A stretch of 53,501 nt of DNA. It comes from Thermoplasmatota archaeon. GTDB lineage: Archaea; Thermoplasmatota; E2; UBA202; JdFR-43. Below are positions 44,400 to 49,949 of the stretch, in pieces. How positions within the stretch are numbered: the stretch's first letter is position 1; every line of letters starts with the position of its first letter. Location: positions 1 to 53,501 of the forward strand of contig JAWAYL010000004.1 in assembly GCA_038818725.1 (NCBI GenBank). Direction: 5' to 3'. The notes beneath the pieces were generated by a model. The model made no database searches and was not told where the DNA came from. It saw only the letters and a program-made list of their open reading frames with translations. Made by a program: the position numbers and the translations under genes.

Positions 44400-45671
44400 T
44401 TACTGAGCGAAAAGCTCTTCTTTAGCTTTTTCTACTTCTCTATAAATTTTTTCTACCTTTAAATTTAATTTTTTATCATTCAGAAGCAATTTTCCATTTA
44501 TTATAACCTCGCTTACATTCATTCCGCTTGCGGAATAAACAATATTTGAAACTAAATTGTGGCAAGGAATAAGATTTGGAGAGCTTCCATCAATGCATAC
44601 TAAATCCGCTTTTTTACCTTCCTTTATTACGCCACCATCTATACCAAGAAAGCGATAAGCAATTGTTGTTGCCATATCAAAAACTTCCTGAGCATTTGCA
44701 ACAGTTGCATCCCATCTATGCTGTTTATGTATAAGAGAACAAAATTTCATTGTTTCGAACATATCAAGCTTATTGTTGCTACCCGCCCCATCAGTGCCAA
44801 GCGTAACAAAAGCATTTCTTGCTAAAAGCTCTGGCAAAGGAGTGAAGCCGCCGGTGGCGAGCTTCATGTTGCTTATTGGATTATGGGCAACGCAAGCTTT
44901 TGATTTTGCTATTTCCTTTACTTCTTCTTTTGTGAGCCAGCAGCAATGGGCGAGAATTGTTCTTCTTGTAAGCAATCCATTATTTTTTATTTGCTTTAAA
45001 GGTCTTATACCATAATTTTTAATGCAGTCATAAACTTCCTTTCTTGTTTCAGAGCAGTGAATATGAATATATGCATTATATTTTTTTGCAATTTCTCCAG
45101 CTTTTTTTAAAGTCTCGGGTGAGCATGTATAAACTGAATGAGGGGCAACAACTGGTTTAACTATTTCATCATTTCTCCATTTCCTTAAAAATTTTTCACA
45201 TTCCTTAATAAGATTTTCTTTTTTCATCTCTGGAGTATCGAAATCAAGTATGCTGAAGCCAGCGAAGCATCTTATCCCAATTTTTTTTGCAATTTTTGCT
45301 ATTTCATCTTCATAAAAATACATATCAGCACAGCATGTTGTTCCACCAGATATCATTTCAAGAAATGCGAGTTTTGTTCCAGCAGAAATATGTTGCTTTT
45401 TTAATTTTGCTTCAACAGGCCATATTTTTTTAGTTAGCCATTCCTCAAGCTTCATATCATCTCCATAGCCACGAAAAAGAGTCATTGGTAGATGGGTATG
45501 CATGTTTATTAAACCAGGTATAACTATCTTATTTTTTATCAAAAAATCTGCTTCATGATTAATTTTTCCTATTTCAACAATTCTATCATCCTCTATATAA
45601 ATATCCCCTTCTATTATTCTCCTATTTGCATCTTGGGTAACTATTTTTGAATTTTTTATTAATATACTCAT
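44400..45671 (-). CDS. mtaD: Amidohydrolase, 5'-methylthioadenosine/S-adenosylhomocysteine deaminase-like
   Basis: PGLINMHTH, APHS.YT, HIHCSET, AHC, HNP.SNMKLA.G, LGTDG.GSNN and G.KAD. Exact substrate is inferred. Confidence 0.82.
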   Translation of the reverse strand: MSILIKNSKIVTQDANRRIIEGDIYIEDDRIVEIGKINHEADFLIKNKIVIPGLINMHTHLPMTLFRGYGDDMKLEEWLTKKIWPVEAKLKKQHISAGTKLAFLEMISGGTTCCADMYFYEDEIAKIAKKIGIRCFAGFSILDFDTPEMKKENLIKECEKFLRKWRNDEIVKPVVAPHSVYTCSPETLKKAGEIAKKYNAYIHIHCSETRKEVYDCIKNYGIRPLKQIKNNGLLTRRTILAHCCWLTKEEVKEIAKSKACVAHNPISNMKLATGGFTPLPELLARNAFVTLGTDGAGSNNKLDMFETMKFCSLIHKQHRWDATVANAQEVFDMATTIAYRFLGIDGGVIKEGKKADLVCIDGSSPNLIPCHNLVSNIVYSASGMNVSEVIINGKLLLNDKKLNLKVEKIYREVEKAKEELFAQ

Positions 45672-46295
45672 TTAATCGAGCAATATTATATTATATGGAG
45701 TTACAAAAGGATATTCACTTATCTCTCCTTCCACTTCTACCTTTCTTCCTTCAACATCCATTTTTTCTTTCAACAGCACACCTAAAACTCCTTCTTCATA
45801 AGCAAGCCTCATGATATATCCATCTCTATAAGGGACGACAGCTTTAACTACTCCTCTTACTCTTACTTTTCCTTTAGTTGGAACAAATGAAACTGCTTTT
45901 TCTTTTTTCCTGTAAAGTTCATAAAAATTTGCCCTCAATTCCTTTAATATATCTTCATCAGAAACAACAAAAGCAAGTTGATTTTCTTTTATTTCACCTG
46001 CAAATATATATGCTTTTGTAAGCCCAACCGCATAATTACCAATTGCTTCAGGATTCTCAACCGCATTTTTTATCTTAGCGGATGGTGTTGCAACAACCAC
46101 TTTTGCATCGGCTGGTGGCTCGATGCTTATTTTTTCAGCAACTATAAGAGGATTTTTTAATTCTGAAAGGCTCCATTTTTTAAGCAACTTGCAAGTTTTT
46201 TCTGGCACACTTTTTTTCCATGCAAGTTCAACAGCAACAGAAACTGCAACTATTCCAACAACTAATCCAGCAATAAACCCTATTACACTATCCAT
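45672..46295 (-). CDS. Hypothetical membrane-anchored protein (N-terminal TM, degenerate PLD-like core, OB-fold-like C-terminus)
   Basis: TM GFIAGLVVGIVAVSVAVELAW. C-terminal VRVRGVV...VEGRKVEVEGEISEY is OB-like. Stop abuts the mtaD ATG. Likely start 46295. Confidence 0.65.
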   Translation of the reverse strand: MDSVIGFIAGLVVGIVAVSVAVELAWKKSVPEKTCKLLKKWSLSELKNPLIVAEKISIEPPADAKVVVATPSAKIKNAVENPEAIGNYAVGLTKAYIFAGEIKENQLAFVVSDEDILKELRANFYELYRKKEKAVSFVPTKGKVRVRGVVKAVVPYRDGYIMRLAYEEGVLGVLLKEKMDVEGRKVEVEGEISEYPFVTPYNIILLD

Positions 46296-46396
46296 GTCTA
46301 AAATATATTTTTGATTATTAAGCTTTATCATTTTGCCTGACAACTGCTAACATTTATCAAAGAAAAGGATTATTAAACAATGCTACATTACATTTA

Positions 46397-47596
46397 ATGA
46401 GTTTTGAAAATATGTATTCAGCAAGGGTAAAAAGAATTCGCTCTTCTGAAATTAGGGAATTGCTTGAAATTTCTCAAAAACCAGGCGTTATATCTTTTGC
46501 AGGTGGTTTGCCAAATCCAAAAGCATTTCCAGTAAATGATATAAAGGAGATAGTAAATAAAATTCTTGAAGAGGAGCCCGTCAAAGCTTTGCAGTATGGC
46601 GCGACCGGCGGGCTGGCGGAATTCAGGGAGGAGCTAGTAAAATATGCAAAAAAGCATGGAATTGAAACAAAATTTGATGAAGTTTTCATTACAGTTGGCT
46701 CACAACAAGCATTGGATATAGTTGGGCGAGTTTTTATTGATGAAGGAGATATTATTTTTGTTGCATTGCCTACTTATTTGGGAGCGATAAATGCATTTCT
46801 TGCATATGGAGCAAAACTTGTTGGTGTGCCACTTGATGAAAATGGTATGAGGGTCGATTTGCTTGAGGAAAAGATAAAAGAGTTAAAAAAGAAAGGAGAA
46901 AAACTTAAAATGATTTATACAGTGCCTACTTTTCAGAATCCAGCAGGAGTTGAGCTTTCTGAGGAAAGAAGGAAAAGAATGGTTGAAATTGCAAATGAGC
47001 ATAACCTAATAATTGTTGAAGATGAGCCATATGAGAGGCTAAGATTTGAAGGAAAACCATTAAAAGCAATAAAATCATATGATAGCGAAGGAAGAGTAAT
47101 ATATATGGCAACATTTTCAAAAATACTTGCGCCTGGCCTCAGGCTTGCTTATGTGATTGCAAGTGAGGAGCTTACTAAAAAGATGATTGTTGCAAAGCAA
47201 TCGATGGATTTATGTGCTCCTGGATTTACTCAGGCAATTGCATACCATTATATAAAGAATGGCTATATTGAAAGGCATATACCAAAAATTATAGAAATGT
47301 ATAGGAGGAAAAGAGATATAATGCTAGATGCTTTAGAAGAATATTTCCCGCCAGGATGTAAATGGACTAAGCCGAGAGGAGGAATGTTTTTATGGGTTGA
47401 ATTGCCAAAGCATATAAGCACAATTGAAATGCTGCCAGATGCTATAAATGAGAAAGTTGCATATGTTCATGGAAAGGCTTTTCATGTTGATGGAAGTGGA
47501 GAGAATACAATGCGCCTTAATTTCACAAATCCAGAAGATGATATGGTTAGAGAAGGAATAAGAAGACTTGCAAATGTTATAAAGAAAAGAATTTAA
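46397..47596 (+). CDS. PLP-dependent aminotransferase, class I (2-aminoadipate/aromatic type)
   Basis: ISFAGGLP, LQYG.T.G, GSQQALD, PTFQNPAG, EDEPY, TFSKILAPGLR and GGMFLW. Confidence 0.92.
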   Translation: MSFENMYSARVKRIRSSEIRELLEISQKPGVISFAGGLPNPKAFPVNDIKEIVNKILEEEPVKALQYGATGGLAEFREELVKYAKKHGIETKFDEVFITVGSQQALDIVGRVFIDEGDIIFVALPTYLGAINAFLAYGAKLVGVPLDENGMRVDLLEEKIKELKKKGEKLKMIYTVPTFQNPAGVELSEERRKRMVEIANEHNLIIVEDEPYERLRFEGKPLKAIKSYDSEGRVIYMATFSKILAPGLRLAYVIASEELTKKMIVAKQSMDLCAPGFTQAIAYHYIKNGYIERHIPKIIEMYRRKRDIMLDALEEYFPPGCKWTKPRGGMFLWVELPKHISTIEMLPDAINEKVAYVHGKAFHVDGSGENTMRLNFTNPEDDMVREGIRRLANVIKKRI

Positions 47597-48031
47597 CTAT
47601 TCTTTTATTTGGCCATTCATTACAATATTTTTAACAACATTTTCTATTCTTTCAATAGCTTCTTTTATTTTGCCAATTTTTATAGAGGTATCGGGATCAA
47701 GCTCTTTTTCTTCCAGAAGAGAAATATATCCTTTTGCTATTGCAATTGGATTAAAGAAATAATGGGCAATTTCTTCCCTGAAAATTTTTTCCTTAGCCAA
47801 GCTTTCATCTATAAATCCGAAATAGAAAATTGTTTCTCCATTTTCAATTATTGGATATAACCTTATACTTTTGCTATTTTTTAAATATTTCAACTTTTTC
47901 CTCGCCAACCTATCTGCAAAAATTAATTCCTTCTCCTTACTCAAAATAAATACACCATGCCCACTATCTATGCTCGTTATATTTTGCTTTTTGTTTACTA
48001 TTTTATTATAGGAGAGCATTTCTTCAATCAT
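47597..48031 (-). CDS. Stand-alone PAS-fragment + HisKA (DHp)-like protein lacking an HATPase domain
   Basis: GHGVFILSKEKELIFAD (PAS-like start); EEIAHYFFNPIAIAKGYISLL...IERIENVVKNI (H-box helix pair); stop 12 residues later. Own TATATATA box about 24 nt upstream of ATG 48031. Confidence 0.72.
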   Translation of the reverse strand: MIEEMLSYNKIVNKKQNITSIDSGHGVFILSKEKELIFADRLARKKLKYLKNSKSIRLYPIIENGETIFYFGFIDESLAKEKIFREEIAHYFFNPIAIAKGYISLLEEKELDPDTSIKIGKIKEAIERIENVVKNIVMNGQIKE

Positions 48032-48072
48032 TAAACAATAAATGCGAAATCTATATATATTGCTAACTTTAA

Positions 48073-49212
48073 TCAAAATTGTTCCCACAGAGCAATTCTT
48101 TTTGCCTCCTCATATATTTCTTTCAATGGTATTTTCCTCTTTTCTGCAATCTTCCTGCAATCTTCATATTCTGGTGATATGCTCACTATTTTTCCATTAT
48201 AATATCCTATTTTAACATTAACTTCACCATATTTTGTTTCTATTTTCCTTATTTCTCTTTCAAGAATATCTCTCTTAACTTTATAATATCTTATGCCTAA
48301 AGTAGTTGTCTCTTCAAATATTATTTTTTTAATTTCCTCGATTTTATCATCTGTTGCTAAAACTTTAAGCAAACCTCCAATTCTTCCTTTTTTCATAATT
48401 GCTGGCAAAATAAATGCATCTTTTGCCCCACTTTTTATTATTTTTTCAATCAAATAGGGAAAAAACTCTGGATTCATATTATCTATATTTGTCTCTATCA
48501 TATAAATTCCTTCCTCATCAACTTCCTTTCCAATAACAATCCTTAAAAAATTTGGAATTGCAAGCTTCTTTGCTCCCATTCCATATCCAATTTTTTTTAC
48601 TTCAATTTCAGGGAAGGCAAATTCTGCTAAGCCAAGCAACGCGGCGCCAGTGGGTGTGGTTGTCTCTCCTTCAAGTGATGAAAAAATCACTGGTTTTCCT
48701 TTAAGCAGTTCAAGAGTTGCAGGAGCCGGCAAAGGAATGATGCCATGCTCACATTTAACTTTTCCCCTTCCAAGAATAGGAGGAGAAGAATAGAGCTTTT
48801 CTATTTTTAAATATTTTAATGCAATTAGAGTGCCAACTATATCAACAATTGTATCAACTGCTCCAAGCTCGTGGAAATGCACCTTTTCAATAGCTATTCC
48901 ATGAATTTTTGCCTCTACTTTTGCAATTTCTTTAAAAATTTTTTTTGCTTTCTCTTTTATATCTTTATCAATTTCGCTTTCATCTATTATTTTTGAAATA
49001 TCCTTCAAGTTTCTGAATTTTTTATCAGATGAATAAATTTTTAGAGAAGTTCCTTCAACAACATCTTTAACTTTTTTTGCTTCTATATTTACTTCTATTC
49101 CAAGCTTATCAACTTCTTCCCTTAATTTTTTTAAAGGAAAGCCTGCATCGATAAGAGAAGCAAGAAACATATCCCCGCTTATTCCAGATACTATATCAAT
49201 ATATGCAATCAT
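48073..49212 (-). CDS. larC: Nickel pincer cofactor biosynthesis protein LarC
   Basis: GISGDM, AEA..HG....VHFHE.GA.D.I.DIVG, P.PAPAT, TTPTGAA, ETNID, MKKGR.G, ETTTLGIR and PEYEDC. Confidence 0.94.
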   Translation of the reverse strand: MIAYIDIVSGISGDMFLASLIDAGFPLKKLREEVDKLGIEVNIEAKKVKDVVEGTSLKIYSSDKKFRNLKDISKIIDESEIDKDIKEKAKKIFKEIAKVEAKIHGIAIEKVHFHELGAVDTIVDIVGTLIALKYLKIEKLYSSPPILGRGKVKCEHGIIPLPAPATLELLKGKPVIFSSLEGETTTPTGAALLGLAEFAFPEIEVKKIGYGMGAKKLAIPNFLRIVIGKEVDEEGIYMIETNIDNMNPEFFPYLIEKIIKSGAKDAFILPAIMKKGRIGGLLKVLATDDKIEEIKKIIFEETTTLGIRYYKVKRDILEREIRKIETKYGEVNVKIGYYNGKIVSISPEYEDCRKIAEKRKIPLKEIYEEAKRIALWEQF

Positions 49213-49949
49213 TTTATCCTCCTTTCTATAAGATGGGCAGCAACTCCTGCCCCAAATCCATTATCAATATTAACAACAACTATTCCAGGAGAGCAGCTGT
49301 TTAGCATGCCCATTAATGAAGCAAGCCCACCCAATCCTGTTCCATATCCAATGCTTGTAGGAACCGCTATAACCAGCGAAGAAGTAAAATTTGATATTAT
49401 TGTTGGAAGTGCTCCATCCATTCCAGCAACAGCAATAACAACGCTTGCATTTTCAAGCTCCTCAGCAAAATTAATAAGCCTATGAATGCCAGCAACTCCC
49501 ACATCATATATCCTTTTTACCCTGCTTCCAAGCTCTTCAGCGGTTATGCTCGCTTCTTCCGCCACCCTTATATCTGCGGTGCCTGCGGTTGCAACTACTA
49601 TATAACTTTTTCTCCTCGATTTTTTCTTTTTGCCTATTACAATCATTCCACATTCTTTATAATATCTACAATTTTCTAAATGTTTTAGCATTTCATATAT
49701 TTCATCATTTGCCCTTGTTATGAAAATTTTCTCCCTTGAAAGCATTTCCTCAACAATTTTTTTTATCTGCTCCTTTGTTTTCCCTTCAGCATATATCGCT
49801 TCTGGAATTTCTCTTCTTATCCTGCGATGAAAATCAATTTTTGCAAAACCAAGCTCTTTAAATGGCAAAATTTTCAGCATTTTTTTTGCTTCCTCAATAC
49901 TTATTTTTCCTTCTTTTAGCTTTCGAAGCAACTCATCAACTTCCATCAT
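49209..49949 (-). CDS. larB: Nickel pincer cofactor biosynthesis protein LarB
   Basis: D.HR..R..IPE.IYAEGKT, AGTAD..VAEEA, DVGVAGIHRL, AGMDGALP, VPTSIGYG and NIDNGFGAG. Confidence 0.95.
   Translation of the reverse strand: MMEVDELLRKLKEGKISIEEAKKMLKILPFKELGFAKIDFHRRIRREIPEAIYAEGKTKEQIKKIVEEMLSREKIFITRANDEIYEMLKHLENCRYYKECGMIVIGKKKKSRRKSYIVVATAGTADIRVAEEASITAEELGSRVKRIYDVGVAGIHRLINFAEELENASVVIAVAGMDGALPTIISNFTSSLVIAVPTSIGYGTGLGGLASLMGMLNSCSPGIVVVNIDNGFGAGVAAHLIERRIK

Follow-up and report, generated by a model that had tools for sequence, protein, structure and literature searches.

A small HisKA-like protein without a kinase domain in Thermoplasmatota, and the receivers that accompany its family

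What can a protein do that carries the phospho-acceptor hairpin of a histidine kinase and no kinase domain? The question is raised by a gene at positions 47597-48031, minus strand, of a Thermoplasmatota contig that is analysed here as a whole (the window, 53,501 nucleotides). The gene encodes a protein of 144 amino acids (aa), which a first-pass annotation, made from the letters of the DNA, had taken for an orphan phospho-acceptor protein with no ATPase domain. We propose, with a probability of roughly 0.55, that it is a kinase-less dimerisation and histidine phosphotransfer (DHp) protein that acts on phosphorylated receivers, by regulated dephosphorylation or by back-transfer. The proposal is drawn from sequence comparisons.

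The genome that contains the window (G000) measures 1.117 Mb in 57 contigs, has 32.7% GC and is rated 91.5% complete; the window is its contig C4. G001 is a congener, and handles in L and P denote loci and database proteins, respectively. Related contigs come from metagenome-assembled genomes of Thermoplasmatota or Thermoplasmatales from hydrothermal settings (JdFR-43, Guaymas B78_G9, the Auka AUK bins and HyVt-387). The gene and the features of its C-terminal half are as follows.

47597 to 48031, minus strand: gene encoding the kinase-less DHp protein of 144 aa, with its stop codon at 47597-47599; from the open reading frame and translation, the start shared with orthologues and the ratio of nonsynonymous to synonymous substitution rates (dN/dS)
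47600 to 47815, minus strand: HisKA-like DHp module, residues 73-144, two helices and a short loop; from the family profile (124.6 bits), Pfam HisKA, AlphaFold2 and Foldseek
47726 to 47767, minus strand: H-box AHYFFNPIAIAKGY, residues 89-102; His90 codon at 47762-47764, Tyr91 in the acidic position, Asn94 and Pro95 invariant
47600 to 47617, minus strand: C-terminal tail NGQIKE; family motif G-[E/K/Q]-I-x-E followed by the stop

The C-terminal hairpin

The C-terminal half is likely a divergent homologue of the HisKA-type DHp hairpin. Pfam HisKA (PF00512) matches residues 88-136 with E=6e-5 and 23.4 bits, under the 26.9-bit cut-off, and a sub-threshold match recurs in every orthologue (19-25.6 bits). 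When the profile of the module is compared with the PDB, His90 aligns with the H-box histidines of ThkA (3A0R, E=2e-4) and KinB (3D36, E=6e-4). The single-chain AlphaFold2 model, made with an alignment of 79 sequences, predicts an antiparallel two-helix hairpin with helices at residues 77-107 and 113-139 and a five-residue loop between them (predicted local distance difference test, pLDDT, 88-97); the protein stops five residues after the second helix. The highest Foldseek probabilities fall on DHp domains (GacS 7N0E, ERS1 4MTX) and on LOV-kinase chimeras, the GacS DHp match having a TM-score of 0.84, a root mean square deviation of 2.1 Å over 58 residues, a probability of 1.0 and E=0.1. The H-box helical hairpin read from the letters in the first-pass annotation is thus borne out by the sub-threshold HisKA match, the kinase H-box alignments and a confident model.

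Do other phospho-acceptor folds fit as well? HPt (PF01627) gives no match at E<=10, and two helices are predicted, as against the monomeric four-helix bundle of HPt. Neither PF10090 nor PF14689 matches the window protein, NCBIfam yields weak partial matches to kinase models only, and a weak SPOB_a match (E=0.008) in one paralogue is the only sequence hint of Spo0B.

Residues F84, H90, F92, N94, P95, I98, A99, G101, A125, R128, E130 and G140 are invariant in the 79 aligned sequences, and E144 is nearly so. Conservation of the histidine, on which the first-pass annotation had staked its reading, holds throughout this alignment. Among about 160 database homologues the H-box reads HYFFNP in 102. 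The position after the histidine (H+1), which is Tyr91 in the window protein, is Tyr in 110 of the 160, His in 21 and Phe in 13 (144 together) and Glu or Asp in nine; H+4 is Asn in 153/160 and H+5 is Pro in 160/160.

A family that ends at the module

Is the protein one of a kind? When the frames of G000 were searched, three paralogues emerged that have the final ~71 residues in common with it and stop directly behind them, which brings the members in G000 to four.

G000 C9: paralogue of 432 aa with three PAS domains, ending at the module
G000 C6: paralogue of 280 aa with two PAS domains, ending at the module
G000 C32: paralogue of 1411 aa, REC-GAF-PAS(x7)-GAF, ending at the module

A family profile built from the four G000 modules finds the module at 3-13 places per genome in 37/37 relatives of families f1 and f2, which belong to one order, and nowhere in three genomes of families f3-f5; such a search for paralogues had been suggested with the first-pass annotation. 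In a sample of the phylum (301 genomes, E<=1e-8) the module is present in f1 (10/10) and f2 (9/9) and in 0/281 others. Among 1.84 billion representative proteins there are 185 matches at E<=1e-3. In all of the ~120 strong matches the module forms the very C-terminus. The proteins reach 1982 aa, one matched protein (P0102) has 1551 aa, and fragments and stand-alone 71-aa modules occupy the short end of the length range.

The end of the module is also the end of the protein. It coincides with the stop codon in 81/81 fetched loci, and 135 of the 145 database proteins whose match reaches the end of the profile terminate there. These 135 proteins all have a terminal Glu, and 129 have Gly at position -5, giving the ending G-E-I-x-E. 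The 144 codons of the window frame translate, exactly as first annotated, into a protein with the natural end NGQIKE. HATPase_c (PF02518) is found in 0/29 homologues with precomputed Pfam annotation, and none follows the module in the 81 loci. The N-termini of homologues hold PAS, GAF, REC, HAMP with CHASE4, HisKA_7TM, or nothing besides the module. NCBI names these homologues 'PAS domain S-box protein'; the module itself is therefore unannotated.

The gene is real and under purifying selection. Other genera have orthologues of 169-171 aa, in at least seven genomes, and these all share an equivalent initial Met (M.EM..F.K); because it is common to orthologues from seven other genomes, the start at 48031 is supported. 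Two congeneric genomes have the gene, the proteins being 88% and 69% identical, and dN/dS against them is 0.15-0.22 in both halves of the protein. Truncation or a pseudogene was considered and rejected: no relative has a catalytic ATP-binding (CA) domain, selection is purifying, and orthologues extend across genera. With the histidine conserved as well, the description as a phospho-acceptor (DHp) protein without a catalytic domain stands. Within a lineage-specific family present in two families of one hydrothermal Thermoplasmatota order, the 144-aa protein has the smallest architecture.

Identity to the congener G001 is 69% for the 144-aa protein and 80-90% for its five neighbours (44400-49949), so the gene is faster-evolving despite purifying selection. 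At L038:3665-4186 an in-frame stop separates the PAS-like half of an orthologue from its module; either the frame is a pseudogene or the assembly is in error there.

Several variants of the module were seen. A 136-aa frame at L019:1483-1890 (G000 C6:27886-28293, minus strand) has a C-terminal half distantly related to the module (18 bits), in which Tyr stands at the position of the His (EISYDLLNTLIACRGYLE); its N-terminal half has no Pfam match, and the frame may be a His-less module derivative. P0139 and similar proteins are 71-aa stand-alone modules with Pro at H+4, and the 145-aa P0150 has the same H-box variant. In P0151 a KAP-family P-loop NTPase is followed by two modules.

Dedicated receivers

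With what might the module work? Whole-genome scans for HATPase (PF02518) and receiver (PF00072) domains place all matches on contigs other than C4, as the first-pass annotation had stated for the window. Elsewhere G000 encodes five paralogous single-domain receivers (on C11, C43, C16, C8 and C32) with the motif GFTAxFGTxWA and with acidic pocket, phospho-Asp, Thr and Lys intact. Four of the five are unlinked to any partner gene. The fifth, on C32, has a TTG start and overlaps the end of the 1411-aa module gene by 8 nt; a Shine-Dalgarno-like GGTGA precedes it.

The same arrangement is found in relatives. In 76 related loci with enough downstream sequence, a receiver gene overlaps or abuts the module stop 24 times, and the frequency varies with the length of the module protein: 14/17 at 600 aa or more, 7/24 for mid-sized proteins and 3/35 for short ones. 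More than 30 further module-receiver pairs are legible from profile-match coordinates. The receiver subfamily (E<=1e-25) occurs in exactly the same 38/41 genomes as the module, G000 included. P0154 is a natural fusion of transmembrane segment, PAS, module and receiver, without a CA domain, and its receiver scores 111 bits against the subfamily profile, versus 36-39 bits for the other receivers of that genome. These findings show that, in the genomes, the module is partnered with a single-domain receiver subfamily dedicated to it. The label 'orphan' accordingly holds for the neighbourhood of the 144-aa gene and fails for its family, whose dedicated receivers are encoded at other places in the genome. 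A role in phosphotransfer or phosphatase signalling fits this tight link.

Two observations concern the C32 pair. At C32:10150-10185 (in L018) the GGTGA lies inside the codons of the conserved C-terminal G-E, such that a protein motif and a translational coupling signal overlap. At L012:1408-1720 the N-terminal receiver of the 1411-aa paralogue lacks the acidic pair (IIVASREE) in the genus, while other genera keep DDE, Asp, Thr and Lys; this domain may be turning into a pseudo-receiver.

Complete kinases

Six HATPase_c frames are present in G000: four complete kinases, GyrB and Topo VI B. All six are accounted for, and a stand-alone CA partner, looked for among them, is absent from the genome. 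All four kinases have their own H-box. The kinase on C40 is paired with a regulator consisting of a receiver and a winged helix-turn-helix domain (REC-wHTH), and those on C6, C28 and C2 (H-box RHDxxN) have no partner gene alongside. The module profile does not match the DHp domains of the G000 kinases even at E<=10.

Complete kinases are present in every f1 and f2 genome, and often they are outnumbered by the module proteins. Eight regions in relatives were picked because a kinase match lay near a module or receiver match on one contig. Six of the eight have the order complete kinase, module protein, receiver; a seventh has module, receiver, kinase; and the eighth (L123) has only a receiver, ~0.8 kb upstream of the kinase. 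In L117 the module protein, preceded by a complete kinase, has a receiver domain of its own at the N-terminus, with the catalytic residues intact. Among 80 unselected loci a kinase directly upstream of the module gene was found in 0/37, so the row of kinase, module and receiver is lineage-limited.

What does the module do?

The residues around the histidine offer a clue. In CrdS, HK1190, HK4262 and HK853 the acid at H+1 is needed for kinase activity and dispensable for phosphatase activity, and the Thr or Asn at H+4 is needed for phosphatase and dispensable for kinase activity (Willett and Kirby, PMC3510030). Because the H+1 acid is lost and the H+4 Asn kept, the family would seem to bear naturally a 'kinase-minus, phosphatase-plus' signature.

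In the mechanism that we favour, the 144-aa protein would dimerise through its hairpin and would not autophosphorylate. It would dock phosphorylated receivers of the dedicated subfamily, which presumably receive their phosphoryl groups from the four complete G000 kinases. On a signal the phosphoryl group would be taken off the receiver, either by phosphatase action or by back-transfer to His90. Such removal chemistry is favoured because the H-box keeps the H+4 Asn and has lost the H+1 acid needed only for kinase activity. What would be the signal for a protein so short? It may be speculated that the activity of the 144-aa member is probably set by the level of transcription, that is, by dosage and not by ligand binding. 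Transcriptional control is probable because almost no sensor is left and the promoter, with its operator-like repeat, is very conserved.

Several points weigh against this mechanism. Some kinases do not strictly require the invariant histidine as phosphatases, and its invariance would be explained just as well by a phosphotransfer role in a relay. Conservation of the Asn-Pro pair could serve a helix kink alone. The HisKA match of the window protein stays under the cut-off, and Foldseek against the PDB gives no match at E<=0.001, as expected because a helical hairpin is a simple fold. The 144-aa gene has no receiver or kinase neighbour in any of the 11 genomes examined, so that its partner is deduced from the family only. 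The co-distribution of module and receivers may reflect a single gain, since the genomes are related and are not independent samples, and kinase adjacency was seen only in the regions picked for having both genes on one contig, against the 0/37 of the unselected loci. The class 'HisKA, no HATPase', to which such proteins belong, has been catalogued from sequence (Galperin et al., 2018; PMC5847659).

Might the protein be a histidine phosphotransferase step in a multistep relay, running from kinase to receiver, to the module histidine and on to a second receiver, as a Spo0B or ChpT analogue with sensors? This is possible, if doubtful. The histidine is invariant, and long members start with a receiver domain, in which relatives keep DD, D, T and K, while a second, separately encoded receiver comes after them, which gives two receiver types; the order in L117 is histidine kinase, REC-...-module, REC. 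Spo0B and ChpT demonstrate that DHp-derived dimers are capable of such a role. The 144-aa protein and most short members, however, have no receiver of either kind nearby, and the N-terminal receiver of the long G000 paralogue is without an acidic pocket. Only two G000 receivers have an output domain and one of these is already paired with a kinase, which leaves no clear terminal acceptor. An H-box that has lost the H+1 acid and kept the H+4 Asn bears the signature of a phosphatase, though transfer is still compatible with it; phosphatase action appears more likely than a relay step. A wider scheme is put forward tentatively: a three-part archaeal logic of complete kinase, kinase-less DHp co-sensor and receiver-only protein, in which the DHp proteins would be sensor-gated relay or sink stations and the 144-aa form would be dosed by transcription and act on unlinked receivers.

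The hairpin might instead be a phosphorylation-independent adaptor, a scaffold for dimerisation or receiver binding with a structural histidine. Protein-protein interaction roles have been suggested for such proteins (Galperin et al., PMC5847659), the distant small paralogue at C6:27886-28293 has Tyr for His, and the subgroup of 71-aa stand-alone modules has Pro at H+4. We consider an adaptor unlikely, in that all 79 sequences agree in H, N and P and differ at adjacent helix positions, and the partner receivers retain all their phosphorylation residues. Or is the kinase split, such that the module is its acceptor half, is phosphorylated at His90 in trans by the CA of another, complete kinase, and then phosphorylates receivers? 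Complete kinase genes do lie directly beside module genes in several relatives, H-box-less ATP-hydrolysing Methanosarcina kinases that possibly phosphorylate another partner have been discussed (PMC11784639), and P0151 joins its NTPase to two modules. Against the split system raised in the first-pass annotation, the search for stand-alone HATPase_c genes suggested with it finds no such gene in G000; the four kinases own H-boxes, the H+1 general base for autophosphorylation is missing, and the module profile misses the kinases' DHp domains. This explanation is quite improbable. More improbable still is a dominant-negative inhibitor that forms mixed dimers with a kinase DHp, as RetS does with GacS, or a decaying kinase remnant. 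The top high-TM Foldseek match is the GacS DHp from the RetS-GacS complex, and the protein is small, has a reduced sensor and evolves faster than its neighbours (69% versus 80-90% identity to G001). Mixed dimers with the G000 kinases are unlikely, however, because module and kinase DHp are different sequence families (the kinase H-boxes are RHDxxN or HELKTP), and decay is excluded by the dN/dS of 0.15-0.22, cross-genus conservation and the absence of any family member with a CA domain. Regulated removal of phosphoryl groups from dedicated receivers remains the reading that we prefer.

Comparison with known systems

Is such a protein new? The first-pass annotation had thought of a possibly undescribed system, which overstates the matter, since the architecture class has been described. 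Galperin et al. (2018; PMC5847659) report 'nonenzymatic HK-like proteins', in which PAS/GAF sensors precede a HisKA-like domain that has a conserved His, lies at the C-terminus and is accompanied by no recognisable HATPase. These occur mainly in Archaeoglobi and Methanomicrobia, are listed also as 'HisKA, no HATPase' or, in P2CS, as 'possible incomplete histidine kinase', and a phospho-acceptor, phosphotransfer or phosphatase role has been proposed for them; REC-(PAS)n-HisKA regulators such as A. fulgidus AF_1472 are described in the same work (PMC5847659). The present family is alike in its N-terminal PAS, GAF or REC sensors, C-terminal HisKA-like domain, conserved His, lack of HATPase and misleading or absent annotation. 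PAS, GAF and REC are clear in the paralogues and the window protein has a PAS remnant only; its His is conserved and HATPase is absent. The 144-aa protein has every defining feature of the class, so its kind is already known. Unlike the class as described, the family is confined to one Thermoplasmatota order, its HisKA match lies below the cut-off, and it has Tyr at H+1, the G-E-I-x-E end and dedicated receivers. A 70-aa domain associated with receivers, AcidOD1, is known from Aciduliprofundum. What seems unrecorded, then, is a bounded Thermoplasmatota family with an H-box signature, a C-terminal motif, co-distributed receivers and a minimal 144-aa form.

The hairpin with H-x-x-x-N-P and the retained H+4 Asn resembles the bifunctional HisKA DHp domains of EnvZ (domain A), CrdS and HK853. 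Isolated EnvZ domain A, which has no CA domain, reportedly dephosphorylates its receiver. Those cases are fragments or mutants of complete kinases, whereas here the CA-less state and the loss of the H+1 acid are natural. Spo0B of Bacillus and ChpT of Caulobacter are DHp-derived, cannot autophosphorylate and exchange phosphoryl groups with receivers. They keep a C-terminal CA-like pseudo-domain and have no sensors, in contrast to the 144-aa protein, which ends right after the hairpin; in the three-part scheme above, the family would be a sensor-equipped archaeal counterpart of Spo0B and ChpT without even a pseudo-CA domain. ThkA (3A0R) and KinB (3D36), from thermophilic bacteria, are the best matches among solved structures, their H-box aHEIRNPl..i.Gf aligning with aHYFFNPi.iAkGY. 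As complete kinases, both possess a CA domain, and their H-boxes have Glu at H+1 and Arg at H+3.

The N-terminal half

47816 to 48031, minus strand: N-terminal 72 residues, a possible shortened PAS-like remnant; from weak PAS matches in orthologues, deletions in the alignment and predicted strands

How much of a sensor is left? The N-terminal half with the linker is about 25 residues shorter in the window's genus than in other genera (79-sequence alignment). In orthologues, PAS profiles (PAS_8/PAS_9) match weakly and over no more than their first ~30 positions (residues 24-52), and one orthologue passes the PAS_8 cut-off; the window protein itself has no PAS match among the Pfam profiles. AlphaFold2 predicts five strands here with low confidence (pLDDT 30-69). 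Of what was first read from the DNA, the 'truncated PAS-like segment' is the weakest claim: the partial matches in orthologues speak for it, and the missing match in the window protein and the low-confidence strands do not. By profile and model, the half fits a shortened PAS remnant and falls short of proof.

Gene neighbourhood and promoter

The neighbour upstream is larC (Ni_insertion/LarC, confirmed at 48073-49212). In congeners the gene is kept in place between larB-larC and a convergent aminotransferase gene, and this synteny is confined to the genus. In other genera it follows genes for an adenylate-forming enzyme and a transglutaminase-like protein and is convergent with rad50-mre11. Sequences just upstream of the gene are as follows.

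48032 to 48085, minus strand: own promoter of the 144-aa gene; 34 invariant columns across nine genomes
48053 to 48065, minus strand: TATA-like TAGCAATATATAT; in the 41-nt spacer to larC, centred ~26 nt before the ATG
48072 to 48082, minus strand: upstream box ACAATTTTGAT; overlaps the larC stop
48036 to 48062, minus strand: inverted repeat CAATATAT / ATTTATTG; flanks the TATA-like element, with CAAT/ATTG boxes

About 70 nt upstream of the gene are conserved above the level of the protein (the 34 invariant columns in the nine genomes, versus ~40% protein identity). The boxes CAATTTTG, TAGCAATATATAT and ATATATTGT are invariant or nearly so in these genomes, though the upstream genes differ; the promoter travels with the gene into different genomic contexts. 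A TATA box of its own, directly after larC, had been noted at first reading, and the invariance of TAGCAATATATAT across genera, even where the upstream gene is another, upholds it. The TATA-ATG spacing predicts a leaderless or near-leaderless mRNA. The inverted repeat suggests a putative operator for a regulator, and the region as a whole suggests a tightly regulated transcript. The composite motif occurs once in G000, with two weak look-alikes (C7:5889 and C10:16292).

A near-identical promoter-like element of ~50 nt (TCAATTTTGATTTTATAGAACAATTTTGCTAACAGTTAGCTTTATAAAAA) is present on at least five G000 contigs (C27:13120-13170, C43:7777-7830, C51:6627-6665, C5:37616-37660 and C7:5889-5937), three times at or near contig ends; the CAATTTTG box occurs both in this element and in the 144-aa gene's promoter.

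Other HisKA proteins without HATPase

The f1 and f2 genomes encode another set of HisKA proteins without HATPase, ~400-530 aa long, in which a PRC-barrel/CdvA-like coiled-coil and PAS precede a C-terminal HisKA (P0147, P0153, P0157 and P0163; examples at G003:C62:2816-2998 and G008:C9:8235-8417). H+1 is Glu or Asp in 3/4 of them. These proteins were not found in G000. They may link kinase-less signalling with cell-division-type proteins.

Significance

Kinase-less HisKA proteins are catalogued in archaea, and the present family is a tractable case for learning their function. It offers a minimal soluble member of 144 aa, a precise signature that predicts a phosphatase-only DHp, and a natural fusion of module and receiver. 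In a genome of 1.1 Mb, candidate partners can be named, namely four complete kinases and five single-domain receivers, the latter intact. If phosphatase or relay activity is true, a function would be given to a class of proteins now named 'PAS domain S-box protein' or mislabelled as kinases, and the control of the numerous receiver-only proteins in archaea would be better understood.

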